Counted from the first letter of the stretch, positions 3,315 to 48,976 are shown. The stretch: 64,000 nt of DNA from Candidatus Latescibacterota bacterium (GCA_965223905.1 CBDCXV010000001.1:1568001-1632000), one strand, 5' to 3'. A program made the numbers and translations. The notes: generated from the sequence alone by a model not told the origin.

Positions 3315-5369
3315 TCACTCCAGCAATGCCTTCAGCAGGGCATCCGGGGTGCCGGAGTAGAACTGCACGTTGACGCGCGTCGCCATGTCGTCGGAGAGAT
3401 CGAACAACTGCTTCCGATCCGAGACAGGGATCAGCACCGTTTCCGCCCCTTTCTCGACCGCGGCTTCCACGATGCCGACGGCATTCGCCAATGGCTCCAC
3501 CGAGCCTCCGAGGTTAAGGGCACCCACCACGATCAGGCCGCCCTTCAGGCTCTTCTCCAGCAAGGCGCCACAGAGCGCCAGCAACGCCGGCAGTCCGAGA
3601 GACGCCCCCGAACGATCATTGTCCATGGCGCGAAGCTGCACGGAGAATTCATGGCTTCGGGGGTCGCGGTCTCCAACCAGCTCCCTCGCCCGGGTGTACA
3701 GGTTCTGCTCGGCGTACCGGGTGCTCTCGCGAAACGCCTGAGGGACGGGCGAATTCAGAATCCTTACCCCGCTGCCCCGGCCCGTCGTAACCTCGATTCG
3801 ATACAGGGAGGGGCCCGTCTCCTGCCCGCCCGGACCGATTCCCCACACCTGGCCCGGAGGCAACGGGTCCGGATCGATGGCGTCGTCGCTGCGCAGCTCC
3901 GGCGTGGCGACGAACTTCTCTATTCCGTCTTCGCCCATCGCGTAACTGAACTGGGTGTTGCGGAACTCGCTCTTGAACACCCGCTTCTGCTGCTCCTTGA
4001 CCCGGCGGCGGGTCTCCATAGCCAGGCGCACCAGCGGCTCCAACTCATCGTCCGGAACCGACATCTCCGGGTCCGGGTACAACAGCTTGAGCAGGCCGCT
4101 CACGGTCTTGTTGACCGCGGTGATGTCCCGTCCGCTGAGCGCGCCGCCGTAGTTCACTCTTCCCTGCAATTGCTGAACGCGGCTGCCGGTGCGCAACCGG
4201 CTCCAGCACTCCGAGAGGAAATCGCTGACCAGGCCGAAGTGGCTGGTGAAGTGCTCGTTCGGGTTGAGCTTGGGGAAGTCCCATCCGGGCACGTAGGCAT
4301 GGATGCGATCCATGAAGGCCGTATCGTCGCGCATGTCCGCGGACAGGGGACTGAACAGGTGCCCGACCCGTTGCTGGTGCTCGACCTCCACGTCGAGGTT
4401 GCCGACCATGACTACGCCGCCATCTGCGCGAATGCTCTCCTTGCCGCGCGAGAACTCGCCTGACTCCATGTACCCCTTGAGAATGTTGACGCCGTCCTTC
4501 TGATCGAAGGAGACGCTGGCAATCTCGTCGAAACAGACCACGTCGTATTGGCAGACGAGGCCGCGCTGCCCCGTGGCGTTGTTGACGAACATCTTGGCAA
4601 CCGTCGCCTTGCCGCCGGAGATCAAGTGGGCGTAGGGGGAGATCTGCTGGAACAGGTGGCTCTTGCCGGTCCCGCGCGGCCCCAGCTCGACCATGTTGTA
4701 GTTGCGCTCGACGAACGGCGTCATCCGGATCAGCGCGACCATCTGCGCTCTTTCGGAGAGCGCGGCGGGCTCCAGTCCGATGCTGCGCAGCAGGATTCGC
4801 TTCCACTCCTCGCTGGTAAACTGGCTGCGGCCGTGCCGGAGGGTATCCAGCGTGTCGGCTTTGGAGAGCTGAATGGCGCGGAGACCATCTACGGCAAAGG
4901 GGCGCCCGTTCTTCTCCTGGGCGATGGCGGCGTCGTAGCTCAGCGTCACCTCGGCGTAGAAGCCGTCGGTCAGCATGCGCTCGTGCTGCTTGACCAGACT
5001 GTCGTCGATACGGACATCCTTGAGCGCGAGGCTGGGAAGCTCGGCAATCAGCGAATCAGTCCTGGCGTCCAACCTCGCCTTGACGATGTCGATCAGCTTG
5101 ATGGAACCGAGGTCGCGCGCCCGCGCCTTGAACAGCTCTTCTTCCCCGCTCCGTACCGTGCGGTCGGCCAGCTGCCGCTCCACGATTTCGAGCCCTTCCT
5201 CGATTTCCCGCTCGTCGGTGGTGGCGCAGTAGCGCCCGAGCAGGAACTCGACGACGTAGGTGGGAACCGGGTACTGGCGACTGTACTTGCGCACAAGGTC
5301 CTTGCGGACCAGGTAGCCGTCGAAGGCCTTTGCCGCCCGCTGGTCGAGTTCGTCGAGTTCCAGTCTCAC
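3315..5369 (-). CDS. brxL: BREX Lon-like protease/ATPase BrxL
   Basis: N-terminal VRKDLV..YPVPTYVVEFLLGRYC, Walker A GPRGTGKS, Walker B VCFDE, Lon-like C-terminus; overlaps the pglZ stop. Confidence 0.95.
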   Translation of the reverse strand: MRLELDELDQRAAKAFDGYLVRKDLVRKYSRQYPVPTYVVEFLLGRYCATTDEREIEEGLEIVERQLADRTVRSGEEELFKARARDLGSIKLIDIVKARLDARTDSLIAELPSLALKDVRIDDSLVKQHERMLTDGFYAEVTLSYDAAIAQEKNGRPFAVDGLRAIQLSKADTLDTLRHGRSQFTSEEWKRILLRSIGLEPAALSERAQMVALIRMTPFVERNYNMVELGPRGTGKSHLFQQISPYAHLISGGKATVAKMFVNNATGQRGLVCQYDVVCFDEIASVSFDQKDGVNILKGYMESGEFSRGKESIRADGGVVMVGNLDVEVEHQQRVGHLFSPLSADMRDDTAFMDRIHAYVPGWDFPKLNPNEHFTSHFGLVSDFLSECWSRLRTGSRVQQLQGRVNYGGALSGRDITAVNKTVSGLLKLLYPDPEMSVPDDELEPLVRLAMETRRRVKEQQKRVFKSEFRNTQFSYAMGEDGIEKFVATPELRSDDAIDPDPLPPGQVWGIGPGGQETGPSLYRIEVTTGRGSGVRILNSPVPQAFRESTRYAEQNLYTRARELVGDRDPRSHEFSVQLRAMDNDRSGASLGLPALLALCGALLEKSLKGGLIVVGALNLGGSVEPLANAVGIVEAAVEKGAETVLIPVSDRKQLFDLSDDMATRVNVQFYSGTPDALLKALLE

Positions 5370-37879: not shown

Positions 37880-38668
37880 TCAAACCAAGTACTCCCCAGG
37901 GATCCGCGAACCCTTGTACTCCCCCTCCGGGTCGCGGCTTGCGATGACCTCTGGGATCTCCTCCTCCCAGTTGTCCGGCACCGTCAGCGGCCGCCGGTGC
38001 CAGGCCAGGATCAGGGTGCGGCGCACATCGGTCAGGTTGCGGTGCGCCGAGTGCAGGAGGCGGGCGTCGGCGATGGTCAGCGACCCGGCCTTCACCATCA
38101 CGTCCAACTGGTCGGGGTGGTCGCTGAACATCACCGGGTGGTCCTCGTCGATGAAGCGGGCCCCCTGCTCGTGGGCCGGCACCAGCTCATCGTGCAGCTC
38201 GTGGCGTTTGAGGTGCGACCCGGGGATCACCTTGAGGCAGCCGTTCTCGACCGAGGTGTCGGACAGGTAGTACGACAGGAACACGATCTGCGGCCACGGG
38301 GAGCAGCTGAACGGGTCGTTCCACTGCATCCAGTCCTGGTGCCAGTAGAGGGCCGGCTCCCCGGGATCCTTGGTCAGGATGATGATGCCCCCGGTGCTCT
38401 CGAAGTCGCCGAAGCCGAGCTGCTCCAGCACCCGCCGCGAGGCCGGCCACTCGAGCAGCCGCCGGATGACCTCGTTGTCGCTGCCCTGGGCGACGACGTG
38501 CTGCCCCTGGTAGCGGAACTCCTCGGCCATGACGTGGTGCTCCATCAGCCGGTCCGACTCGGCGCGCAGCTCCTGCAGGAATTCATCCGTCAGCACATCG
38601 TCGACCACGCAGCAGCCGTCGCCGATCATCTGCCGGCGCTTCGCCGCGGCCTCTTCCGGTGTCATCAT
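37880..38668 (-). CDS. Phytanoyl-CoA dioxygenase (PhyH) family
   Basis: WHQD, NGCLKVIPGSH and LLHSA motifs. Confidence 0.9.
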   Translation of the reverse strand: MMTPEEAAAKRRQMIGDGCCVVDDVLTDEFLQELRAESDRLMEHHVMAEEFRYQGQHVVAQGSDNEVIRRLLEWPASRRVLEQLGFGDFESTGGIIILTKDPGEPALYWHQDWMQWNDPFSCSPWPQIVFLSYYLSDTSVENGCLKVIPGSHLKRHELHDELVPAHEQGARFIDEDHPVMFSDHPDQLDVMVKAGSLTIADARLLHSAHRNLTDVRRTLILAWHRRPLTVPDNWEEEIPEVIASRDPEGEYKGSRIPGEYLV

Positions 38669-38791
38669 CAAGCTCTCCTTCCCGGTTCGGTTTCGGGGGC
38701 TCAAAATCGCCATTTGCAGCGGCGCAAACCAGCGGGGATATTTGCCGCATCAGCCACGAAAAACCTCCACCCGACACCGGAGAAACCCGTC

Positions 38792-40429
38792 ATGCCCTCT
38801 TCCCGGACCGAGGCCGTCCTGCTCGACGACGAGCAGGTGCGCAGCTACATCGCCAACGGCTACATCCGAATCGACCTCTCCGTGCCCGCCGAGGTGCACG
38901 AGTCGATCGCCGTCAAGCTCGACCGCATGCTCGAGCTGGGACCGAACCTCGGCAACAACGTGCTGCCCCATACCCCGGAGTTCCGCCACGTCCTCAACTC
39001 GCCGGAGGTGCGCGGGGCGCTGAGCAGCCTGCTCGGACCGGACTACATCGAGCACCCGCACCGGTACTGCCACAACATGGCCCCCTTGGACGAGGCCCCC
39101 GAGGACATCGCCGCGGCGGTCGGCAAGCGCTGCCACCAGGATTCGTACACGCCGATGTCGCGGCCGCGGCAGCACTACCCGCGCTACGCCCGCATCATCT
39201 ACTACCCCCGGGCCACGCCGGAGAAGCACGGGCCGACGCACGTCACCCCGGGCTCGCAGTTCCACAAGACGGTTACCGACGAGGACCGCGCCGCGGCCCT
39301 CCCGATGGAGGGGCCGGCCGGCTCCCTGTGGATCACCCACTTCGACGTCATCCACGGCGCCGGGATCAACCTGTCGGACCGGACGCGGCACATGATCAAG
39401 TTCATCTACCTGCGCCGCGGCGGGCTGAAGGGTCCTGCCTGGAAGTGCCAGGACATCCAGTGGAAGACCCCTGAGGGCCTGCAGGCGCCGTGGGATCTCG
39501 AGGTCGCTTGGTCGCACATGTGGGACTGGATGTGCGGAAAGGAGGACCGCTGGGACAGCTTCAGGTCCGCACACGGGACCGGGAACGGCAACGGCGAGGA
39601 CCTCGCCGCAGCCCTGGAAGGGGACCGGCCCACCGCCGAGATGCTGGCCGCCATCCGCCGGGCCGCTGCCCTGGGTCCGCGCGCCGCCGGGGCGGTGCCG
39701 GCCCTGATCGGACTCCTGAAACCGGGGCACCAGGCGGTGCGCGCCGCGGCCACCTACGCGTTGGGCGCCATCGGGGAGCCCGCGGTTCCCGGGCTGGTTT
39801 CGAGACTGGAGGAGGCCGGACGCCGCGGCTGGGTCGAGGGGGAGCCGGCTACCTGGGGGGAGGGAACCGTGCAGATGATGGACGAGGCCCACGCCCTCGG
39901 GGCCGTCGGCAAGCCCGCGGTCGCCGCGCTGACCGGGCTGCTCGAGTCCGCCGGGGAGTGGGGGCGGATCAACGCCGCCTTCGCGCTCGGGGAGATGGAC
40001 TCGAGGGCCGCCGAGGCGGTGCCGGCCCTGAGCCGCTGCCTCGAGGACGACTCGCACCGCATCGTGCGCACCGCCATCGACGCCCTCGGCATGATCGGGG
40101 AGGACCCCGGCCGCTACCTGCCGCGCCTGCGCCGGTTTCTCGTCGAAACCCGCCCCGACTGGGGGGAGGTGCTGACCGGAAAGCGGGCCTGGATCGCGCG
40201 CGACCAGGTGCGCGTGAACGCCGCCACCGCCATGGCCCGCCTGGGGGCGCAGGCCGGCTCGGCCGAGGAGGAGCTGGTGCAGGCGCTCGACGACCCCTGC
40301 GGCTACGTCGGGCTGGTGGCGACCGACGCCCTGCGGCAACTCGGCTCGCCGAGCGCCAACCAGGCGGTGACCGACCTGGTCATGGCCCAGCGCTGGGACT
40401 CCTCCCTGTACCCCGAGCGGCCCTGGTAA
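38792..40429 (+). CDS. PhyH dioxygenase fused to HEAT repeats
   Basis: CHQD, GPTHVTPGSQ, IHGAG.N, followed by VRAAATYALG, RINAAFALG and VRVNAATAMA repeats. Confidence 0.88.
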   Translation: MPSSRTEAVLLDDEQVRSYIANGYIRIDLSVPAEVHESIAVKLDRMLELGPNLGNNVLPHTPEFRHVLNSPEVRGALSSLLGPDYIEHPHRYCHNMAPLDEAPEDIAAAVGKRCHQDSYTPMSRPRQHYPRYARIIYYPRATPEKHGPTHVTPGSQFHKTVTDEDRAAALPMEGPAGSLWITHFDVIHGAGINLSDRTRHMIKFIYLRRGGLKGPAWKCQDIQWKTPEGLQAPWDLEVAWSHMWDWMCGKEDRWDSFRSAHGTGNGNGEDLAAALEGDRPTAEMLAAIRRAAALGPRAAGAVPALIGLLKPGHQAVRAAATYALGAIGEPAVPGLVSRLEEAGRRGWVEGEPATWGEGTVQMMDEAHALGAVGKPAVAALTGLLESAGEWGRINAAFALGEMDSRAAEAVPALSRCLEDDSHRIVRTAIDALGMIGEDPGRYLPRLRRFLVETRPDWGEVLTGKRAWIARDQVRVNAATAMARLGAQAGSAEEELVQALDDPCGYVGLVATDALRQLGSPSANQAVTDLVMAQRWDSSLYPERPW

Positions 40430-40445
40430 GCGGGCGGAGGCCGAA

Positions 40446-41255
40446 ATGCAGCTCGACGACAGCCATTACGAGGCCTTCATGGAGCAGGGGTACGTGGTGG
40501 TCGAGGGATTCTACCCCGAGGAGAAGCGGGCCCGCATAGCCGCCCTCCTCCGCCGCATCATGCCCCCCTGGGAGGAGATTCGAGAGAACCCGCCCGAGGG
40601 GGGCCTGCTCAAGGACGACTTCCCGTACGAGGAGCAGTACTTCAACCACCTCATCCTCGACCCCGACCTGGTCGGCTTCGTGCGGCGGGTGCTCGACACG
40701 GAGAAGATCCACTTCCGCTACGCCCACAACTGGACCCGCTACCCCAACGGCCCGAAGGATAACCGCATGCACCGCGACAACGGCAACAACTCGCTGCTGC
40801 CGCCGTGCGGCGACGTCCGCTACGGGCAGATCAGCTCCTGGTACTTCCCCGAGGACGTGCCGGAAGACCAGGCGCCGATGATGGTCATCCCCAAGAAGTT
40901 CGGGGACGACGCCGGCAAGGGGGTGATGCTGGCGGTGCCGGGGGGCACGCAGATGATCTTCAACACCTATCTGTGGCACTCGGCCACCCCGTTCATGGGG
41001 AGCGAGGGGCAGCGCTACTCGGTGACCCGGATCTACGGCCGGGCGGATCATTACTGGGAAGGGGTCCGCAGCTACACCAACCTGGCGTCGGTGGAGCATT
41101 TCCGGGAGTTCATCGGCTCGATCAGCGCCGAGCAGCGGGAGCTGTTCCGGTTTCCCCCGGCAGGGCATTCGTACTACGACACCGAGACGCTGGCTGCGCT
41201 GGAGGAGCATTACCCTGGGTGGGGTGCCGGGGGGGAGTACACGGAGGCAGGGTAG
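40446..41255 (+). CDS. PhyH family dioxygenase
   Basis: EQGYVVV, MHRD and LWHSA motifs. Confidence 0.85.
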   Translation: MQLDDSHYEAFMEQGYVVVEGFYPEEKRARIAALLRRIMPPWEEIRENPPEGGLLKDDFPYEEQYFNHLILDPDLVGFVRRVLDTEKIHFRYAHNWTRYPNGPKDNRMHRDNGNNSLLPPCGDVRYGQISSWYFPEDVPEDQAPMMVIPKKFGDDAGKGVMLAVPGGTQMIFNTYLWHSATPFMGSEGQRYSVTRIYGRADHYWEGVRSYTNLASVEHFREFIGSISAEQRELFRFPPAGHSYYDTETLAALEEHYPGWGAGGEYTEAG

Positions 41256-41439
41256 GCTGGAGATGTAGGGGTAGGGAGTGAATGGCCAAGGTGAAGGCTT
41301 TGAACTTTCCCGGTTTGCAATGCCAGGGGATCTTTGTCAGGAGTAACTCCCCGCAGCCATTACCCGAACCATTTGTTCGGACGCTATCAGTAATGTGCCA
41401 TGGCATGAGAATTCGACCTGATACCGAGATGCTTTTTCC

Positions 41440-41772
41440 ATGAAATTGCCCGATGGCGAAAATGCGCTGGTACCAATCCAAAAAATTGAACAATATCTGC
41501 TTTCCGAGGTGCATGCCATAGGTCGAGCAAAGGCGCGATTCTTCCAAAGTGTCGGATATCAACCACGAGATGCTTCTGTTCTCGCCGCTGATTTAGCATC
41601 CATTGCCCGCAATGAGCAGGTCTCCGACGTTGCGGAGACACGTCATGGCACCAAGTATGTTGTGGATGGCAACCTGAAAACCCCATCGGGTTCGAGTGTT
41701 CGCATACGGACGGTCTGGATTGTTGAGGCAAGTCTGGATAGGCCGCGTTTGGTGACAGCGTATCCAGGCTGA
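41440..41772 (+). CDS. DUF6883-like putative toxin
   Basis: MKLP..ENA.V..KIEQYLLS..H..GRAKARFF...TVWI...PRLVTAYP. Confidence 0.75.
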   Translation: MKLPDGENALVPIQKIEQYLLSEVHAIGRAKARFFQSVGYQPRDASVLAADLASIARNEQVSDVAETRHGTKYVVDGNLKTPSGSSVRIRTVWIVEASLDRPRLVTAYPG

Positions 41773-41792
41773 TCAAGGAGGATTGAGTTGAG

Positions 41793-42026
41793 ATGACTGA
41801 ATTGGATCTGGTAGTTCTCGAGGAGTCCATTGTAGAGCACGGTCTGGTGGCGGGCGATGTGGGGACGGTCGTCCATAGATATGCAGATGAGAAGGCGTCG
41901 GAGGTAGAGTTCGTGGATACCCAAGGTACCACCATTGCTGTTCTGACTCTGGAAGATTCGGTAGTGCGTACTCCCATGGCGGGTGAAATTCTACACGTTA
42001 GAGATGTATCGCCCGCGGGCTCCTGA
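41793..42026 (+). CDS. DUF4926 protein (putative antitoxin/immunity)
   Basis: ELDLVVL....HGLVAGDVGTVVH....EVEF....G.TIAVLTL. Confidence 0.85.
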   Translation: MTELDLVVLEESIVEHGLVAGDVGTVVHRYADEKASEVEFVDTQGTTIAVLTLEDSVVRTPMAGEILHVRDVSPAGS

Positions 42027-42034
42027 CCTTTCTA

Positions 42035-42478
42035 GCAGATCAGCTCATGGTACTTCCCCGGACGTGCCGGAGGACCGGGCGCCGATGGCCGATGATGGTC
42101 GTCCCCAAGAAGTTCGGGGACGACGCCGGCAAGGGGGTGCTGCTGGCGGTGCCGGGGGGCACGCAGATGATCTTCAATACCTACCTGTGGCACTCGGCCA
42201 CCCCATTCAGAGCGAGCGAGGGGCAGCGCTACTCGGTAACCCGGATCTACGGCCGCGCCGACCATTACTGGGAAGGGGTCCGCAGCTACACCAACCTGGC
42301 GTTGGTGGAGCCGTTCCGGGAGTTCATCGGCTCGATCAGCGCCGAGCAGCGGGAGCTGTTCCGGTTTCCCCCGGCGGGGGACTCGTACTACAACGGGGTG
42401 ACGCTGGCTGGGTTGGAGGAGCATTATCCTGGGTGGAAGGCGGGTGGAGAGTACACGGAGTGGGGCAACTTAGATTAA
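42035..42478 (+). pseudogene. Diverged duplicate of the 3' half of the PhyH gene at 40446-41255
   Basis: Aligns with 40826-41246 with small indels at its start; no 5' half present. Confidence 0.92.
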
Positions 42479-42588
42479 CATGGGAAGTAAAACGATAACA
42501 GCAAATAATACTGTGAAGGAAAGTTTGGGGGAAAGGTTTCTAAAGGTGTCTTTATCTTGTTGTTGATTACGATAAAGAAACAGGGGCT

Positions 42589-43605
42589 ATGAAACGATAC
42601 TGGACCACTGATGAATTTGTACTAAGGCAGAAACGTCGAATACGAAAATCAGAACGCCTAAAGCAGAAAAGGAGAAAACAGTATAGGAGACCGCGCAAGG
42701 AATCACCGAAACCCCGAGCGACACGCTCGGGTCTGGAAGAACAAACCCTGGTTGCACCAGAAGTACTTAATCTTTTTGTAGAACCTAATGAAACTCTCAA
42801 CTACTGTAACACATTGCGATATCACCTTAACAAACGGGAAATTAAAGTCGATCTTGATCTTCGCAATATCCGTAGTTTTTCAAGTGATGCGCTTCTTTTA
42901 ATGCGGGCAATCATTTTGAACTCAAGAAGCCCCACTCGATCAGTCGGTGGAAATCTGCCGGTGGATCCGAAGGTGGCTTCCGAATTCAAAGCATCTGGTT
43001 TTTTCCAGGGGTTTGATCAGCCACCTGCTGATCTTCCTCCTGCCAAGGGGTTGATGTTGGACAAATCAAATTTTCGGGTGTATGCGAAAACTGCTTCGGA
43101 GTTGGTGGATTTCGCTGAAAATCACGTTGCAATCACTAGAGAATGCACTAACGCATGTTTTCAGACTCTTGTTGAGGTCATGACGAATACACACAACCAC
43201 GCGGGTGACAAGAAGCCCGGCATGCGTGAAGAAAAATGGTTTGTCAGTGTTTACTGCATAGAAGGATTGGCTTACTTCAATTTTGTTGATCTTGGAATTG
43301 GCATTTTAAAGAGCGCCCAAGCTATCAATTTCCTGAAAAGATTCGGTTCATCGCTTTTTGCGTTTGGCCGAATCAGCCTACTAAAAGAGGCCTTCAATGG
43401 TACAATCGGGTCTGTTACCGGTAATCCAGGCAGGGGTCTCGGGCTTCCAAGAATGAAATGGGATGCGGAAAACGATAAGCTGTCTGATCTCCAGGTATTG
43501 ACTTCTAATGTAATCGGATCTGTTGCTGATTTAGATTTCAAATCAATTCACCCTTCATTACATGGCACATTGTTTCGTTGGTGCGCCGGACCCAAAGGAG
43601 TCTGA
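42589..43605 (+). CDS. GHKL (histidine-kinase-like) ATPase with basic N-terminus and probable STAS-like domain
   Basis: N box EVMTNTHNHA, G1 DLGIGI, G2 GRGLGL; low GC. Confidence 0.8.
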   Translation: MKRYWTTDEFVLRQKRRIRKSERLKQKRRKQYRRPRKESPKPRATRSGLEEQTLVAPEVLNLFVEPNETLNYCNTLRYHLNKREIKVDLDLRNIRSFSSDALLLMRAIILNSRSPTRSVGGNLPVDPKVASEFKASGFFQGFDQPPADLPPAKGLMLDKSNFRVYAKTASELVDFAENHVAITRECTNACFQTLVEVMTNTHNHAGDKKPGMREEKWFVSVYCIEGLAYFNFVDLGIGILKSAQAINFLKRFGSSLFAFGRISLLKEAFNGTIGSVTGNPGRGLGLPRMKWDAENDKLSDLQVLTSNVIGSVADLDFKSIHPSLHGTLFRWCAGPKGV

Positions 43606-43608
43606 GGA

Positions 43609-43962
43609 ATGATAAAAATCAATATAGCTAAAGATTTCACTCAATTTCCTGGTCCTCGATACAAAAATCAGGGACCGGGGTCCGGACAGGAGTTCCGGGA
43701 AAACCACTTAGAACCTGCGTTCCTGAAAGCCAGAGAGACTAGTGGGCAAGTCACAATCGAACTCGATGGTCTAAAATACAGTTACCCCACGTCCTTTCTT
43801 GAAGAGGCATTTGGGGGCCTTGCCAGGCAGTACGGAATAGATGAAGTTGAGCGAATCTTACGCTTCGTGTCGGCTAATGAACCATTACTCGACACCGAAT
43901 GTCGCCACTACATAAAGCATGCACACGATACGCCCGGGACAAGTTTTAGGGGGGAGAAATGA
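43609..43962 (+). CDS. STAS-like DUF4325 protein
   Basis: DFTQFPGPRY..GPGSGQEFRE...IELDG..YPTSFLEEAFGGL. Confidence 0.85.
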   Translation: MIKINIAKDFTQFPGPRYKNQGPGSGQEFRENHLEPAFLKARETSGQVTIELDGLKYSYPTSFLEEAFGGLARQYGIDEVERILRFVSANEPLLDTECRHYIKHAHDTPGTSFRGEK

Positions 43963-44507
43963 AAATACCAAAAAAAATAATCCTTCCCTTAGTGATCGGC
44001 GTTCTCATTGGAACCTTTGTAATGTCGTGGGTGGATACACCTCACATTTCAATTTGCTTGATAAATGCGGGGGTAACCTTGGTGGTCGGCTGGTGGATCC
44101 ACAGCGCTGTTCGACGCAGGGGGGAATCAGAGCGCGTTTCGACCGATTACTTATCAAATCTTAGCCGCCGGATTGACGAGTTGATAATGACGTGTCAAGG
44201 CGTTACAAACAGGGGGCCCGACGGTACTATTGAATTCACACGGCTCTCGAATGAGATATATTGGTTATGCATTGTTGCGGAGAAAATGAAACCCAGTCTG
44301 ACTTCATCGGTAGAAAAACTCCGTACACATTTCTTTATTTTCAAAACGCACTTGACCGGGGATGCTAATCCAGAAATTGGATTGGCATTGATGGAAGCAA
44401 ACGAAATGCGAATGACAGTTTTGAAAATCCATTGGGATCTGTGTCGATGTGTCTTAGATCGAAGGACTGATACGGGCCTTTTTCCCGGTTTCGAGGATGA
44501 TGTTTGA
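43959..44507 (+). CDS. Hypothetical protein with two N-terminal TM helices
   Basis: Two hydrophobic segments followed by a helical domain; ATGA overlap with the upstream gene. Confidence 0.7.
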   Translation: MKIPKKIILPLVIGVLIGTFVMSWVDTPHISICLINAGVTLVVGWWIHSAVRRRGESERVSTDYLSNLSRRIDELIMTCQGVTNRGPDGTIEFTRLSNEIYWLCIVAEKMKPSLTSSVEKLRTHFFIFKTHLTGDANPEIGLALMEANEMRMTVLKIHWDLCRCVLDRRTDTGLFPGFEDDV

Positions 44508-44532
44508 AGTGGTCCGAAAGTAGGTGCTGGGT

Positions 44533-45243
44533 TTAAATTTTTTGCAGCGCCAGCCAGCGTTCCCACCAGACTCGCACCAGGTCGGGCAGGGCCGGCCCGA
44601 TGTTCTCCGCCACGCGCCACTGGAAGCAGTTGTCGGGCTCCAGCTTGGGTTCGTCCGGGTCGTACTTGCACAGCCCTCCTCTCAACACGAGCCGCTCGTT
44701 CACCCCCGGGGGCAGCTTGCCGCGGTGGATGGTGTTGCCGTCCCAGAACAGGGTCTGGCCCCGCTTGAGGACGACGTTCTCCATGCCGGGGAGATCCCTG
44801 TGCCTGTCGGAGACGAGGGCGTCCCGCTCCTCGTCGGTGCGGTAGCGGCTCTGGCTCCAGGGGACCAGCCACAGGCAGGGGTCGTCGATCAGGGCCGGCT
44901 GCCAGCGGAAGTTGGTCTTCGGCTTGTTGAGGAGGGCCATCTCCCCGTCGTAGGGGAGGTCGCGGTTCGTCCCCCCAACGTCCCGGTGCCAGCCGGTGTC
45001 GTAGGTCTCCCGGGCGTTGCGCAGGTGGACGTAGCCCAGCCGTAACTCCTTGCCCAGGAAGGCCTCGACGTATTGCAGCAGCTTCGGGGTCAGGAAATGC
45101 TCGCCGAATACGGGCTCGCCGAACTCGGGGGCGATCAGCCCGAAAATCGCCCCGGCGTCGGGCCCCATGCCGGGGACGTCCACCTCTCCGGACCGCACCT
45201 TGTTCCAGACGTTCCAGGAGGCGGTCTCGAGCCGTTTCAGCAT
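44533..45243 (-). pseudogene. PhyH family dioxygenase, 5'-truncated
   Basis: GWHRD, LWLVPWSQ and TIHRG motifs. The frame extends upstream only to DVFGPDM and lacks the usual N-terminal GY segment. Confidence 0.7.
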
Positions 45244-45273: not shown

Positions 45274-45534
45274 CTAATTTGACTCGCCGACTTGAATCGA
45301 GCCACAGTTGTTTTGGGTGTTCGACTCTCCTGCGACCGCATCCACACAGGCAATGTAGTACGTGCCCTCACTCGGCTGGGTGGTTAGATCGATCTGCTCA
45401 TTCCTGATGACGGCAGGCGCCAGGGCGTCCACGGTGTCCGTGCCGACTTCCGTATCGTCTGGAGAAAACGTCGCGTCTGCCGACCGGTAGTAGCGCAGGG
45501 TTGTAGCCGCCGACGTAACATCGCCATCATTTTG
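45274..45534 (-). pseudogene. Last CARDB domain of the surface-protein gene, cut off by the IS
   Basis: ATTLRYYRS...YYIACVDAVAGES..NNC. Joins in frame to 47005-47095 once the IS is removed. Confidence 0.85.
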
Positions 45535-46997
45535 GGCTATATACGGGTTTTTCAACGTGGTATTTATAGCGTTTCCCCAATGAGATTTTTAGGGTTTCAT
45601 ACTGTACGGAATCGGGCCGGAATCTGCGCAGGGATATCGAGGTCTCCGACGCACAGGTAAATCAGGTCGGCAAAGGCATCCAGAGTTTTAAATCCACTGG
45701 CTCGATTCTTGACCATGCGGATAATGCGATTGAGCCCTTCGGCGGCGGCGTTGGTCAGGTGCGTGTCGACGAAGGCGGTGATGCCGGCCGCCTGCTTGCG
45801 CACCGTGTTGACGAACTTGCGCAGGGGCTGCAGGCGGCTGCGCAGGGCCGCCGTCGTCCACTTCTTGAGGAAGCGTTCGGCGGCCCAGCGCGCCTTGTAG
45901 CGCCAGAAGTGCTCGAACTCGTCCTTCAGGCTTAGGCGCGGTAGATGCGGCGGTTGGCCTTCTCCAGGGTTTGGAGCGTGCGCCGATCCTTTCGCGAGCG
46001 CTGGGCGGAGTGATGCAGCAGCACCCAGCGCAGGCCCTTGAGCAGCTTGCGGTCCTCGCCACAGGCTTGCCGCCACTGCTCCTTGCGCACCTCGTCGACG
46101 GCTTCGTTGAGGGCCTTGACGACGTGGAATCGGTCCAGGACCAACTCGGCGTTGGGACAATGCTGCCGGATGGCGCCGATGAAGGTCTCGCTCAGGTCGC
46201 AGCAGGCCCAGCGGATGCGGTCCTTCTGGAAGTCGCTGAGATGGTCCCGGAAAAACGCGTCGATGGTCTTCCGTGCCTTGCCCTTGCCGACCCAGACGAC
46301 ACGGGAGCGTTCCAGGTCGTAGACCAGGGTAGCGTATTTATGGCCCTTGGCGTAGGAGATCTCGTCGATGCCGAGGGTCTTCAGCCGGCGGATGCGGTGC
46401 CCCGTACGCCGGCGCTCGATGAGCCGGTGCAGCTGGTCGGACAGGGTCGACGGGGCCAGACCCAGCAGGCGCGCGGCGGCGGCCTGCGTCATCCACTGGC
46501 AGTACCTCAGCAGCAGGTATTCGAAGCGGTAGCTGACCTGGGCCGAGGGCGCCGCCCAGGGCACCTCCTCGACGCGACGGCCGTGGGTCGGGCAGCGGAT
46601 CTCCCGAGGGGCGTGGTGCAACCAGAGGGTACGGCCGCAAACGCGGACGTCGCGCCAGCGGCGGAACTCCATGACCTGTACGATCTTGCCGCGGCGCCCA
46701 CACTCGGGACACCGGCACCCGTTCCTTTGGGGCTTCACCGCGATCACGACGGCCGCTTCTTCCCCGTGTCCTTCGAACCACACGCCCACCGCGCGAAATC
46801 CCTTGAATTGGAACAGCTTGGAGACGAACTTCATAGCGGTCATAGGTCGCCTTCCCTTCCCTTTCTTGGGGAGTGCTTGATGGGGATACACCAAGCATAG
46901 GGAACGACCTATGGCCTTGTCATGTACTCAGATGGACAGCAAGGGCTCAGGTACTTTCCGTACTTACGTTTCGGCGTTGAAAAACCCGGATAGACCC
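45535..46997 (-). mobile_element. ISL3-family insertion sequence (1463 bp)
   Basis: 23-bp terminal inverted repeats (20/23: GGCTATATACGGGTTTTTCAACG vs GGGTCTATCCGGGTTTTTCAACG) and an 8-bp target duplication TCATTTTG at 45527-45534 and 46998-47005. Confidence 0.95.
45597..46843 (-). pseudogene. ISL3 transposase, frameshifted near 45930
   Basis: CPECG zinc finger, LGIDE, DRFHV, then LKDEF..TNAAAEGLN..GF in another frame. Confidence 0.9.
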
Positions 46998-47095: not shown

Positions 47096-48976
47096 TTAAT
47101 TCCCGGGTGGCGGCGGTGGCGCACTGACGGTCACTTGCACCCCGCTGGAGCAGTTGTTGCCGGTGGCGGATTCTTCAGAAACCGCATCAACGCAAGCCCC
47201 GTAGTAGTACGTGCCCGCCGTCGCCGGTGCCGTCAGACGAATCGTTGCCGCGTAGTTTTGCAGAGGGCCTTTCTCCCCCACTACATCCGTGCCCTCCAAC
47301 ATGTCGGATGTCGTGATCGTCGCGTCCGTCGAGCGGAAGTACCGCACCGTTGTGGTTGCCGACTGTGCATCTCCCTGGTTGTGCACCGTCACAATTAGCC
47401 TGAACGTCCCGCCCGTCTCCGGGGTGCTGTCGCTCACATTTGGCCCTAGCACAATCAAGTCCGGCGCAGGCCCCTCCCCCTCCACCGTGACCGTCACTTG
47501 CACCCCGCTGGAACAGTTGTTCCCGGTGGCGGATTCTCCAGAAACCGCATCAACGCACACCCCGTAGTAGTAGGTGCCCGCGTCCGTCGGTGCCGTCAGA
47601 CTGATCTCGATCTCTTCACTGTTAGTACCGGAGGCCGTAAGGGCGCCTACCTCACCCGTGCCCACCTGCGTATCGCTCGAAGAGATCGACCTGTCCGTTG
47701 AACGGTAGTAGCGTAGCGTCGTCGCCGACGACGAACCATTGCCCTGGTTGTGCACCGTCGGAAATAGCCCGAACGTCTCGCCCGTCTCCAGGGTGCTGTC
47801 GCTCACATTTAGCCCTAGCACAACCAAGTCCGGCGCAGGCCCCTCCCCCTCCACCGTGACCGTCACTTGCACCCCGCTGGAACAGTTGTTCCCAGTGGCG
47901 GATTCTCCAGAAACCGCATCAACGCAAGCCCCGTAGTAGTACGTGCCCGCCGTCGCCGGTGCCGTCAGACGAATCGTTGCCGCGTAGTTTTGCAGAGGGC
48001 CTTTCTCCCCCACTACATCCGTGCCCTCCAACATGTCGGATGTCGTGATCGTCGCGTCCGTCGAGCGGAAGTACCGCACCGTTGTGGTTGCCGACTGTGC
48101 ATCTCCCTGGTTGTGCACCGTCACAATTAGCCTGAACGTCCCGCCCGTCTCCGGGGTGCTGTCGCTCACATTTGGCCCTAGCACAATCAAGTCCGGCGCA
48201 GGCCCCTCCCCCTCCACCGTGACCGTCACTTGCACCCCGCTGGAACAGTTGTTCCCGGTGGCGGATTCTCCAGAAACCGCATCAACGCACACCCCGTAGT
48301 AGTAGGTGCCCGCGTCCGTCGGTGCCGTCAGACTGATCTCGATCTCTTCACTGTTAGTACCGGAGGCCGTAAGGGCGCCTACCTCACCCGTGCCCACCTG
48401 CGTATCGCTCGAAGAGATCGACCTGTCCGTTGAACGGTAGTAGCGTAGCGTCGTCGCCGACGACGAACCATTGCCCTGGTTGTGCACCGTCGGAAATAGC
48501 CCGAACGTCTCGCCCGTCTCCAGGGTGCTGTCGCTCACATTTAGCCCTAGCACAACCAAGTCCGGCGCAGGCCCCTCCCCCTCCACCGTGACCGTCACTT
48601 GCACCCCGCTGGAACAGTTGTTCCCAGTGGCGGATTCTCCAGAAACCGCATCAACGCAAGCCCCGTAGTAGTAGGTGCCCGCGCCCGTCGGTGCCGTCAG
48701 ACTGATCTCCTCACTGCTAGTACCGGAGGCCGTAAGGGCGCCTACCTCACCCGTGCCCACCTGCGTATCGCTCGAAGAGATCGACCTGTCCGTTGAACGG
48801 TAGTAGTGCAGCGTCGTCGACGCTGACGAGCCATTGCCGCTGTTGCGTACCGTAACGCTCAATGTGAAGGATGTTGCGGCATCCGGGCTGCTGTTGCTGA
48901 CCGAAGGAGACTCAATTACCAGATCAGGTGCATTGTTCTGCGTTGGTGGTGGAGTGCCTCCAGTTGCTACCGCCAC
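47096..48976 (-). CDS. CARDB-repeat region (5 domains), frameshifted continuation of the upstream surface protein
   Basis: Five PDL...TLRYYRS...YYYGACVDAVSGES.TGNNCS units. Confidence 0.85.
   Translation of the reverse strand: MAVATGGTPPPTQNNAPDLVIESPSVSNSSPDAATSFTLSVTVRNSGNGSSASTTLHYYRSTDRSISSSDTQVGTGEVGALTASGTSSEEISLTAPTGAGTYYYGACVDAVSGESATGNNCSSGVQVTVTVEGEGPAPDLVVLGLNVSDSTLETGETFGLFPTVHNQGNGSSSATTLRYYRSTDRSISSSDTQVGTGEVGALTASGTNSEEIEISLTAPTDAGTYYYGVCVDAVSGESATGNNCSSGVQVTVTVEGEGPAPDLIVLGPNVSDSTPETGGTFRLIVTVHNQGDAQSATTTVRYFRSTDATITTSDMLEGTDVVGEKGPLQNYAATIRLTAPATAGTYYYGACVDAVSGESATGNNCSSGVQVTVTVEGEGPAPDLVVLGLNVSDSTLETGETFGLFPTVHNQGNGSSSATTLRYYRSTDRSISSSDTQVGTGEVGALTASGTNSEEIEISLTAPTDAGTYYYGVCVDAVSGESATGNNCSSGVQVTVTVEGEGPAPDLIVLGPNVSDSTPETGGTFRLIVTVHNQGDAQSATTTVRYFRSTDATITTSDMLEGTDVVGEKGPLQNYAATIRLTAPATAGTYYYGACVDAVSEESATGNNCSSGVQVTVSAPPPPPGN
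47130..48690. repeat. Near-perfect tandem duplication with a 732-bp period (CARDB pair)
   Basis: Identical antisense ORFs at 47289/48021, 47498/48230 and 47739/48471, each offset by 732. Edges are approximate. Confidence 0.9.

Follow-up and report, generated by a model that had tools for sequence, protein, structure and literature searches.

VapKSC is a three-gene operon that encodes a STAS-GHKL kinase, a STAS antitoxin of 116 amino acids (aa), and a PIN toxin (Chambers et al., EMBO J 2026, PMC13373217). According to that paper, VapS binds and inhibits VapC with its S48 buried in the interface, binding and antitoxin action are both abolished by the S48E substitution, and the operon gives about 100-fold (about 2 logs) protection against phage Bas42. 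Similarly, CapK, a kinase with a helix-turn-helix (HTH)-STAS-GHKL arrangement, phosphorylates the conserved serine of CapS (STAS-winged HTH) when single-stranded DNA is present (PMC13373217). Herein, an operon of three genes (gene 1, gene 2, and gene 3; positions 42589-44507, + strand) is analyzed in a 64,000-nucleotide stretch of DNA from Candidatus Latescibacterota bacterium (GCA_965223905.1 CBDCXV010000001.1:1568001-1632000), and the whole stretch is called the window. The genes encode a GHKL kinase, a STAS-like protein of the DUF4325 family, and a membrane protein. With moderate confidence, the trio is read as a mobile kinase-STAS-transmembrane (K-S-TM) module that corresponds to the toxin-antitoxin defence system VapKSC but has a membrane effector.

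The locus shares with VapKSC the operon order of a kinase, a STAS protein of about 115 aa with a conserved serine or threonine on the second helix, and an effector. The STAS serine lies in the effector interface in both cases, in a solved structure for VapS-VapC and in a predicted one here. Immune genes are found nearby in both, within 10 kb for 36% in the paper and within 6 kb for 11 of 24 loci here, although the two counts come from different methods; these 24 loci were obtained in a scan of species-representative genomes for gene 1 relatives. In contrast to VapKSC, the product of the third gene is not a PIN nuclease but a membrane protein that combines two membrane helices with a four-helix bundle, and the kinase starts with a leader of about 47 residues rich in Lys and Arg; gene 1 and VapK are likened by their described domains. 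The locus also resembles CapK/CapS, as described in the same source, in having a putative STAS-GHKL kinase with a STAS partner carrying a conserved serine encoded directly downstream. It differs in that CapK has an HTH and CapS has a C-terminal winged HTH, whereas no HTH domain was found by Pfam in gene 1 or gene 2, and gene 2 consists of the STAS-like domain only. In addition, CapK/CapS lie upstream of an immune operon, whereas here gene 3 follows and then a convergent PhyH gene. With SpoIIAB-SpoIIAA and RsbW-RsbV, the locus shares the fold of the kinase domain and a STAS-type substrate with a serine at the start of helix 2, and the face of gene 2 is probably used in a mutually exclusive way as in those pairs. 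It is unlike them in its 338-aa kinase with extra domains, its predicted membrane-protein target, and its mobile unit.

The first-pass annotation of this locus, made from the sequence, had put forward the control logic as a possible novelty. Since two related systems, VapKSC and CapK/CapS, were named in 2026, this logic can no longer count as new, and part of the novelty is gone. A literature search found no description of this kinase/DUF4325/membrane-protein trio. A membrane third gene is not mentioned in the main text of PMC13373217, in which the word "transmembrane" occurs 0 times, and 12 of its 14 supplementary files contain neither "transmembrane", "membrane", nor "DUF4325". The new elements here appear to be a membrane protein as the third component and the docking predicted between it and the STAS protein.

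Gene 1 (42589-43605, + strand) is an open reading frame (ORF) of 338 aa and encodes the predicted Ser/Thr kinase, the K component. Gene 2 (43609-43962, + strand) is an ORF of 117 aa for the S component, a predicted antitoxin or adaptor, and gene 3 (43959-44507, + strand) is an ORF of 182 aa for the TM component, the predicted effector or toxin. Each of the three has homologues elsewhere, which indicates that they are real genes and not chance ORFs. The genes are tightly coupled, as had been reported: the junction of genes 1 and 2 reads TGA-GGA-ATG, a 3-bp gap, and genes 2 and 3 overlap by ATGA. A Shine-Dalgarno-like purine-rich run is located ahead of the starts of both gene 2 and gene 3. The low content of guanine plus cytosine (GC) claimed for the operon is also borne out, at 0.453; the window as a whole has 0.639, and the PhyH genes that flank the operon have 0.65-0.67. 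Among all sliding windows of 1919 bp, that of the operon has the lowest GC (minimum 0.45, median 0.651). An AT-rich leader (42479-42588, + strand, GC 0.373) separates a duplicated PhyH tail from gene 1 and is presumed to be the promoter region; a scan of 41200-44900 for sigma-70 consensus promoters and terminators gave no excess over shuffled sequences and zero sites in this leader.

The AlphaFold2 model of gene 1 has a mean predicted local distance difference test (pLDDT) score of 86.4 and a predicted template modelling score of 0.80. When this model was compared with the PDB by Foldseek, the five top matches were SpoIIAB chains (1th8, 1l0o, 1til, 1tid; 1th8_A with E 1.5e-4), followed by UsfX (8jzt, 8ih8) and RsbW (6m36/6m37, target-normalised template modelling (TM) score 0.75-0.77). 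The target-normalised TM-scores to the anti-sigma kinases ranged from 0.58 to 0.77, and four matches were at E<=0.001. CheA and the ATP-binding domains of sensor kinases ranked below the anti-sigma kinases. In the model, the fold of gene 1 is thus that of a SpoIIAB/RsbW-type serine kinase. The GHKL (Bergerat) ATP-binding domain with its N, G1, and G2 boxes occupies residues 163-338 (43075-43602, + strand). These boxes had been described as intact, and an alignment of 38 relatives agrees: N200, H204, and A205 of the N box, D234-x-G236-x-G238 of G1, and G281-x-G283-x-G285-L286 of G2 are all invariant, and the one exception, E196 of the N box, is kept in at least 90% of the sequences. Likewise, the reported absence of a HisKA H-box holds, as no HisKA match was found in gene 1 even at E<=10, and the part that precedes the ATP-binding domain in the model is an alpha/beta domain, not HisKA. 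At the sequence level gene 1 is distant from the catalogued families. It has no Pfam domain even at E<=10 and no NCBIfam family; none of the 79 clusters at 90% identity that make up its family has a Pfam domain; and searches of the PDB with the single sequence and with the 38-sequence profile gave chance matches or none. HATPase_c_2 of Pfam matches 6 of the 38 family members, with a best E of 0.023. Gene 1 matches phrog_3364 (E 2.4e-19), and a search of BFVD with the gene 1 model returned one unnamed viral protein (E 2.4e-6) and nothing informative.

Two further parts precede the kinase domain. The leader of gene 1 (residues 1-47; 42589-42729, + strand) is Lys/Arg-rich and is modelled as a long helix (8-32). 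A very basic N-terminus had been noted for this protein, and Lys or Arg indeed accounts for 21 of the first 47 residues; M1, K2, W5, R17, and R24 are nearly invariant in the 38 sequences. Gene 1 homologues on plasmids and phages carry similar basic leaders. The leader possibly binds nucleic acid or membrane. Between the leader and the ATP-binding domain lies a putative STAS-like alpha/beta domain (residues 48-162; 42730-43074, + strand) with the motif LDL..V..F[ST]SDALLL, a part that the first-pass annotation appears to have overlooked. Its secondary structure in the model consists of strands at 50-55, 85-90, 118-121, and 154-159 and helices at 66-80, 99-111, and 127-135. This order of strands and helices is typical of a STAS domain. 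STAS_2 of Pfam matches 3 of the 38 family members (best E 5.1e-4), and a look-alike cluster of gene 1 in the Atlas carries the name "STAS domain-containing protein". P0251 (377 aa), which matches gene 1 with 33% identity (E 2e-37), is a natural fusion in which a part like gene 1 is joined to one like gene 2. Another protein, P0250 (218 aa), carries a gene 2-like domain with an unrelated soluble C-terminal extension of 110 aa. P0251 and P0250 are each known from a single short contig.

Gene 2 matches the Pfam family DUF4325 (PF14213, "STAS-like") with E 2.8e-12 and 46.6 bits, compared with a gathering cut-off of 23. The motif TSFLEEAFG that had been pointed out in this protein is present, and its S62, F63, F68, and G69 are invariant in 18 relatives, together with P14, R17, G22, S25, G26, and F29. 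Ser62 (codon 43792-43794, + strand) is located at the start of the second helix and is the candidate phospho-acceptor. Besides its invariance in the 18 relatives (18/18), it is kept in 23 of 24 sequences of a wider set, and the exception has a serine one position earlier. The serine at the equivalent STAS position is a known acceptor in SpoIIAA, RsbV, and CapS, according to PMC13373217. In PHROG 5816, the region matched by gene 2 is the C-terminal end (positions 340-438 of 441). A PDB search with the single gene 2 sequence gave chance matches or none.

Gene 3 had been described as a protein with two transmembrane segments, and two N-terminal membrane helices are predicted. The AlphaFold2 model (pLDDT 85.3) has helices at 5-24 and 28-81, the second of which continues into a cytoplasmic four-helix bundle. 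The membrane hairpin, defined by hydropathy and by the model, covers residues 7-51 (43977-44111, + strand) and has G14-x-x-x-G18 in helix 1. The bundle covers residues 55-170 (44121-44468, + strand) and holds the predicted docking site of gene 2. Basic residues are located at the N-terminus and behind helix 2 (VRRRGE), so that both ends are predicted to be cytoplasmic by the positive-inside rule. Two-helix membrane effectors of abortive infection (Abi) and class II holins are small hairpins with both ends in the cytoplasm and a charged C-terminal domain, and they are inactive until triggered. Gene 3 is like them in its small two-helix hairpin with predicted cytoplasmic ends and its charged C-terminal domain, and unlike them in that no sequence similarity or significant structural similarity to any such family was found.

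No Pfam family (E<=10, apart from a chance membrane-helix match), NCBIfam family, or PADLOC family was found for gene 3, a PIN match was also missing, and an Atlas search returned unnamed clusters only. A profile search of 1.84 billion representatives retrieved 1001 relatives at E<=1e-3, of which 167 remained at E<=1e-10 and 8 at E<=1e-30. The lengths of the best 150 relatives all lie within 82-221 aa, which indicates that no fused forms exist among those 150. In an alignment of 138 sequences, position 133 is Thr in 120 and Ser in 7, N98 is kept in 112, K129 in 110, and L96 in 103, and the glycines of the GxxxG are kept in 92/138 (G14) and 96/138 (G18). Position 94 is Arg in 89 of the 138 and Thr in the copy in the window. 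T133 is positioned at a helix end in an exposed loop in the model, and an alignment of 18 gene 3 sequences retains the Thr. The conserved docking patches are R/T94-L96-S97-N98 and K129-L132-T133.

The complex of gene 2 with residues 52-182 of gene 3 was predicted together with 3 controls. The score was 0.87, and the best of the 3 controls reached 0.00. In a benchmark, 116 of 157 solved complexes and 2 of 215 mismatched pairs reached this score; these rates apply only approximately here, because our own alignments were used. The runs agree in at least 87% of the contacts, and the pLDDT of the partner is at least 78. The predicted interface includes residues 13, 15-17, 21, 56-62, 65, and 90-101 of gene 2 and residues 87-104 and 122-136 of gene 3, and T61 and S62 of gene 2 contact K129 and T133 of gene 3. 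On the gene 3 side, the interface is enriched in conserved residues: 8 of the 18 conserved cytoplasmic positions fall within the 22 interface residues, compared with 3.0 expected (p=0.0027). No comparable complex of a STAS protein with a four-helix bundle turned up in this analysis. The prediction supports the binding of gene 2 to the cytoplasmic bundle of gene 3 via the face that bears Ser62.

The linkage of the three genes is conserved. The 24 loci come from Latescibacterota, Acidobacteriota, Gammaproteobacteria, Bacteroidota, Bdellovibrionota, and one metagenome-assembled genome (MAG) of Bacilli. A gene 2 homologue lies directly behind gene 1 in 23 of them, and the 24th stops at a contig end. 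An ORF of 140-210 aa with at least one predicted membrane helix is third in 21 of the 24. Contig ends cut two of the remaining loci, and the last is a 2.5-kb contig that has a membrane ORF of 78 aa. A three-gene linkage elsewhere, by which the first-pass annotation proposed to judge the operon, is thus found as the same gene order in 21 of 24 loci from six phyla. The junction of genes 2 and 3 is a 4-nucleotide overlap in 12 of the 21, as in the window. Gene 3 is recognized by tblastn in just 13 of the 24 loci, which indicates that it evolves fast.

Similar trios are carried by plasmids of Leptospira, Vibrio, Acinetobacter, and Novosphingobium and by a phage-like plasmid of Pasteurella. A gene 2 relative was found in 13 plasmid records, 8 of which were inspected. 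A first gene is present upstream of the STAS gene in 7 of the 8, and 5 of these 7 match the gene 1 profile; one of the two others is cut by an insertion sequence (IS), and the other is GHKL-like by eye only. A small ORF follows the STAS gene in all 8. Among phages, the trio is carried by Marinobacter phage AS1, where it lies beside Cro/CI genes, and by a Helicobacter prophage. A membrane helix is predicted for 8 of 10 third ORFs from plasmids and phages, and the remaining 2 have a weaker hydrophobic N-terminal stretch.

Several of these loci have features of their own. On an Acinetobacter wuhouensis plasmid (L027, 2279-6144), the module is flanked by two copies of ISAba14, and its first gene has been truncated so that the C-terminal 163 aa of the kinase are left. 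On a Novosphingobium plasmid (L028, about 4309-4881), an unannotated gene 3-like ORF with a membrane helix and the strings WVNRRSE and ELTGGNF follows the STAS gene. On a Vibrio vulnificus replicon (L029, 2953-3675), a DUF4325 gene is followed by a two-helix membrane protein of 126 aa with no kinase upstream; a divergent gene for an ImmA/IrrE peptidase takes the place of the kinase, and this locus may be a kinase-less version of the STAS/membrane pair. In a gammaproteobacterial MAG (L010, 7900-9757), the module sits between hemX/hemY and hemD/hemC, a housekeeping row of haem-synthesis genes, and no integrase was seen within 6 kb.

The first-pass annotation proposed a partner-switching system that acts without a sigma factor. 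The GHKL kinase fold, the STAS partner with its serine, and the predicted binding of the STAS protein to the membrane protein agree with that idea. The part that does not stand is a strict reversible switch of the SpoIIAA/SpoIIAB type, which is not indicated because no phosphatase is present. Neither a sigma factor nor a PP2C phosphatase was found in the operon, in the ORFs of the window examined (37.9-52 kb), or in the 241 greedily called ORFs that neighbour the 24 loci within 6 kb; the three-gene unit thus lacks a sigma factor, as had been stated. A one-way, kinase-triggered release of a toxin fits the module better than a reversible switch. We infer a defence role, a toxic gene 3, and a contact between the kinase and the STAS protein. 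In a resting cell, gene 2 would clamp the four-helix bundle of gene 3 with its Ser62 face, as the predicted binding suggests. Gene 1 would be a cytoplasmic sensor kinase that is switched on by a trigger linked to infection or DNA damage, by analogy with CapK/VapK, which are activated by single-stranded DNA. By the same analogy, single-stranded DNA or some other nucleic acid may act as the trigger, with the basic leader possibly helping to read it. Activated gene 1 would then phosphorylate Ser62 of gene 2, and the phosphorylated gene 2 would lose its hold on gene 3, as the behaviour of VapS S48E suggests. The freed hairpin of gene 3 could self-associate via GxxxG and damage or depolarise the membrane. 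The outcome would be growth arrest in the form of abortive infection, and on plasmids and prophages perhaps addiction to the element or exclusion of other phages.

A number of results weigh against this picture of a VapKSC-like module with a membrane effector. Foldseek found 0 matches in the PDB for gene 3 at E<=1e-3; the best had E 0.092, and the matches were generic helical bundles, so that nothing in the fold of gene 3 points to pore formation or toxicity. None of the 10 third genes from plasmids and phages matches the gene 3 profile at E<=10, which means that they share the architecture only and that a common family of third genes is not established. The resemblance of gene 2 to VapS is marginal: Escherichia VapS (9z7o_A) is the top match of the family profile in the PDB with E 0.12, and with the wider profile of 24 sequences VapS has E 0.15 and an unrelated enzyme is slightly better. 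In the HMMER alignment, Ser62 is aligned to Ser66 of the 134-residue chain 9z7o_A, which would be S48 of VapS if the chain bears 18 extra N-terminal residues. The topology, the STAS_2 matches, and the Atlas lead point weakly to a STAS-like nature of the N-terminal domain of gene 1; its comparison with the gene 2 family by hhalign gave a probability of 0.5%, and kinship with DUF4325 is therefore not claimed. The gene 2 side of the predicted interface is not enriched in conserved positions (4 of 15, compared with 2.8 expected), and K129 and R94 beside Ser62 could favour the binding of the phosphorylated form instead. The search against catalogued defence-system models that had been proposed in the first-pass annotation identified no system: PADLOC-DB v2.0.0 (2023, older than VapKSC) gave 0 families at E<=1 for genes 1-3. 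A credible neighbour by PADLOC models lies within 6 kb in 11 of the 24 loci, a count made without a background control, and 8 of the 24 have no toxin-antitoxin, Abi, restriction, or mobility gene by Pfam.

The position of K129 (kept in 110/138) and of Arg94 (89/138, Thr in the window) beside T61/S62 in the predicted interface also allows the opposite logic, in which phosphorylated Ser62 is read by K129/R94 of gene 3 and activates it. In a variant, the kinase substrate is Thr133 of gene 3, the best-conserved residue of that protein (Thr or Ser in 127/138), at a helix end in an exposed loop. We consider this unlikely. The unphosphorylated pair is already predicted to be bound, with 0.87 against 0.00 for the best control, and according to PMC13373217 the phosphomimetic S48E of VapS, the only tested relative, loses binding, and the STAS serine is the known acceptor in SpoIIAA, RsbV, and CapS. 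Improbable as well is a signalling module of stressosome or RsbW/RsbV type, in which gene 3 anchors the STAS protein or senses the envelope and the kinase-STAS pair signals to an unlinked target. Pairs of kinase and STAS protein are classical regulators, the matches of the gene 3 bundle include periplasmic sensors of histidine kinases (NarX 3ezh, KinB 4llc, PcaY 6s18; none significant), and the eight loci mentioned above have no toxin-antitoxin, Abi, restriction, or mobility gene. However, the gene 3 bundle is predicted to be cytoplasmic, not periplasmic, and no sigma factor, phosphatase, or DNA-binding domain is found in the unit or the neighbours examined. The cassette is self-contained, low in GC, and translationally coupled, moves among phyla, plasmids, and temperate phages, and inserts between housekeeping genes (hemX/hemD in L010), which would not be expected for a regulator tied to the regulon of its host.

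This mobility bears on a further explanation that keeps the same toxin-antitoxin mechanism and assigns it a selfish role, namely post-segregational killing that stabilises plasmids or islands, or superinfection exclusion by prophages. The module is carried by at least 7 plasmids, where it lies beside partition (ParB) and other toxin-antitoxin genes and once between ISAba14 copies, and it is found in the immunity region of a temperate phage. As the main role this has a small chance, since addiction does not require anything as elaborate as a sensor kinase dedicated to removing the antitoxin, and since the one tested relative protects against a phage (PMC13373217); the two roles are not exclusive. 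The proteins that gene 1 matches best in structure are anti-sigma factors, which would suit a classical SpoIIAB/RsbW-like anti-sigma factor and its antagonist, with the sigma factor encoded elsewhere and gene 3 as unrelated cargo. This is very improbable. Gene 3 is linked in 21/24 loci, its start codon overlaps the stop codon of gene 2, binding between the two proteins is predicted, the neighbours examined include no sigma factor gene, and the extra N-terminal domains of gene 1 are missing from proteins of SpoIIAB size (132-141 residues).

The membrane-effector counterpart of VapKSC thus remains the reading that we favour. A broader proposal can be made tentatively, at somewhat less than an even chance. 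The STAS-GHKL kinase and the STAS antitoxin may form a general chassis of a kinase-released antitoxin for unrelated toxins, of which the present family would be the first with a clamped membrane toxin, a phospho-switch between Ser62 and Thr133/Lys129, and an Arg-rich leader as a new nucleic-acid input in place of the HTH of CapK. The gene 3 family concerned is unnamed and comprises about 1000 clusters at 50% identity.

The neighbours identified by PADLOC models are varied. AbiE is found at L002 and L004, AbiEi alone at L008 and L020, AbiTii at L005, and HEC-09 at L002. PDC-S01 is found at L010, PDC-M05 at L013, a methylase fragment at L012, and a type II restriction-modification system at L018. 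L022 has AbiZ and GmrSD/HEC-06, and L024 has a type I restriction-modification system with an LmuA-like ORF. For L010, one of the eight loci without such genes by Pfam, the candidate model PDC-S01 is the only one nearby. PIN or ParE toxins lie near the module at L003 and L009, transposases at L007, L008, and L020, and integrases or recombinases at L015, L016, L018, and L019. Generic matches were dropped, namely pVip on radical-SAM/MoaA genes, mad3 and CARF_LolE on ABC/FtsX genes, PD-T4-6 on a PASTA protein, and helicase models on a DEAD-box gene.

The operon had been described as cargo behind a duplicated PhyH tail, and the duplication was verified. The segments 40826-41246 and 42035-42460 are 89.7% identical over 428 columns, and the second (+ strand), the 3' part of a PhyH gene, lies directly upstream of the module. 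A Latescibacterota chromosome (L005) is syntenic with the window, with flanks that are 92-95% identical. It has a trio at the same site behind the PhyH gene (L005 8001-9926), yet the module is only 69% identical. This difference between module and flanks indicates replacement of the cassette or very fast divergence. The second PhyH tail is 89% identical to the PhyH gene of L005, compared with 94.9% for the block of the intact copy. The lower likeness of the downstream copy suggests that it arrived with the three-gene cassette from another lineage, and the duplicated tail is probably a recombination scar of the acquisition of the cassette. Between the intact PhyH gene and the duplicated tail lies a pair of genes (41440-42026, GC 0.523) for a DUF6883 protein (110 aa, E 3.5e-28) and a DUF4926 protein (77 aa, E 5.5e-18). 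The pair is missing from L005 and has no PADLOC or PHROG match, and it appears to be a small cassette in its own right, mobile or toxin-antitoxin-like. The trio, this pair, and the second PhyH tail appear to reflect cassette exchange by recombination.

Four genes or gene parts of the PhyH dioxygenase family surround the module (37880-45243): 37880-38713 (- strand), an ORF with PhyH and HEAT repeats that ends at 40429, 40446-41255, and the convergent gene at 44533-45243 (- strand). An ISL3-family element with 23-nucleotide inverted repeats (87% complementary) is located at 45535-46997, and its transposase is split into two overlapping ORFs on the - strand, 45932-46894 and 45597-46160. A protein of 626 aa made of repeated CARDB domains is encoded at 47096-48976 (- strand); its gene contains long near-identical internal DNA repeats, and translations of the ORF recur about 730 bases apart. 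A 93-aa fragment similar to this protein (45274-45555) adjoins the ISL3 element.

If the favoured reading is correct, control by a kinase and a STAS protein, known for a nuclease toxin and for transcription, would also gate a membrane effector and would be a portable trigger. A role would be given to two families without a Pfam model, the gene 1 kinase family and the gene 3 family. The same would apply to a large share of the DUF4325 proteins, which are now annotated as "STAS-like domain-containing protein" beside a "hypothetical protein". The predicted interface names S62 of gene 2 and T133, K129, and N98 of gene 3, and since it pinpoints specific residues, the model is directly testable. As plasmids and temperate phages carry the module, it may influence how sensitive many bacteria are to phages and how stably they keep plasmids.

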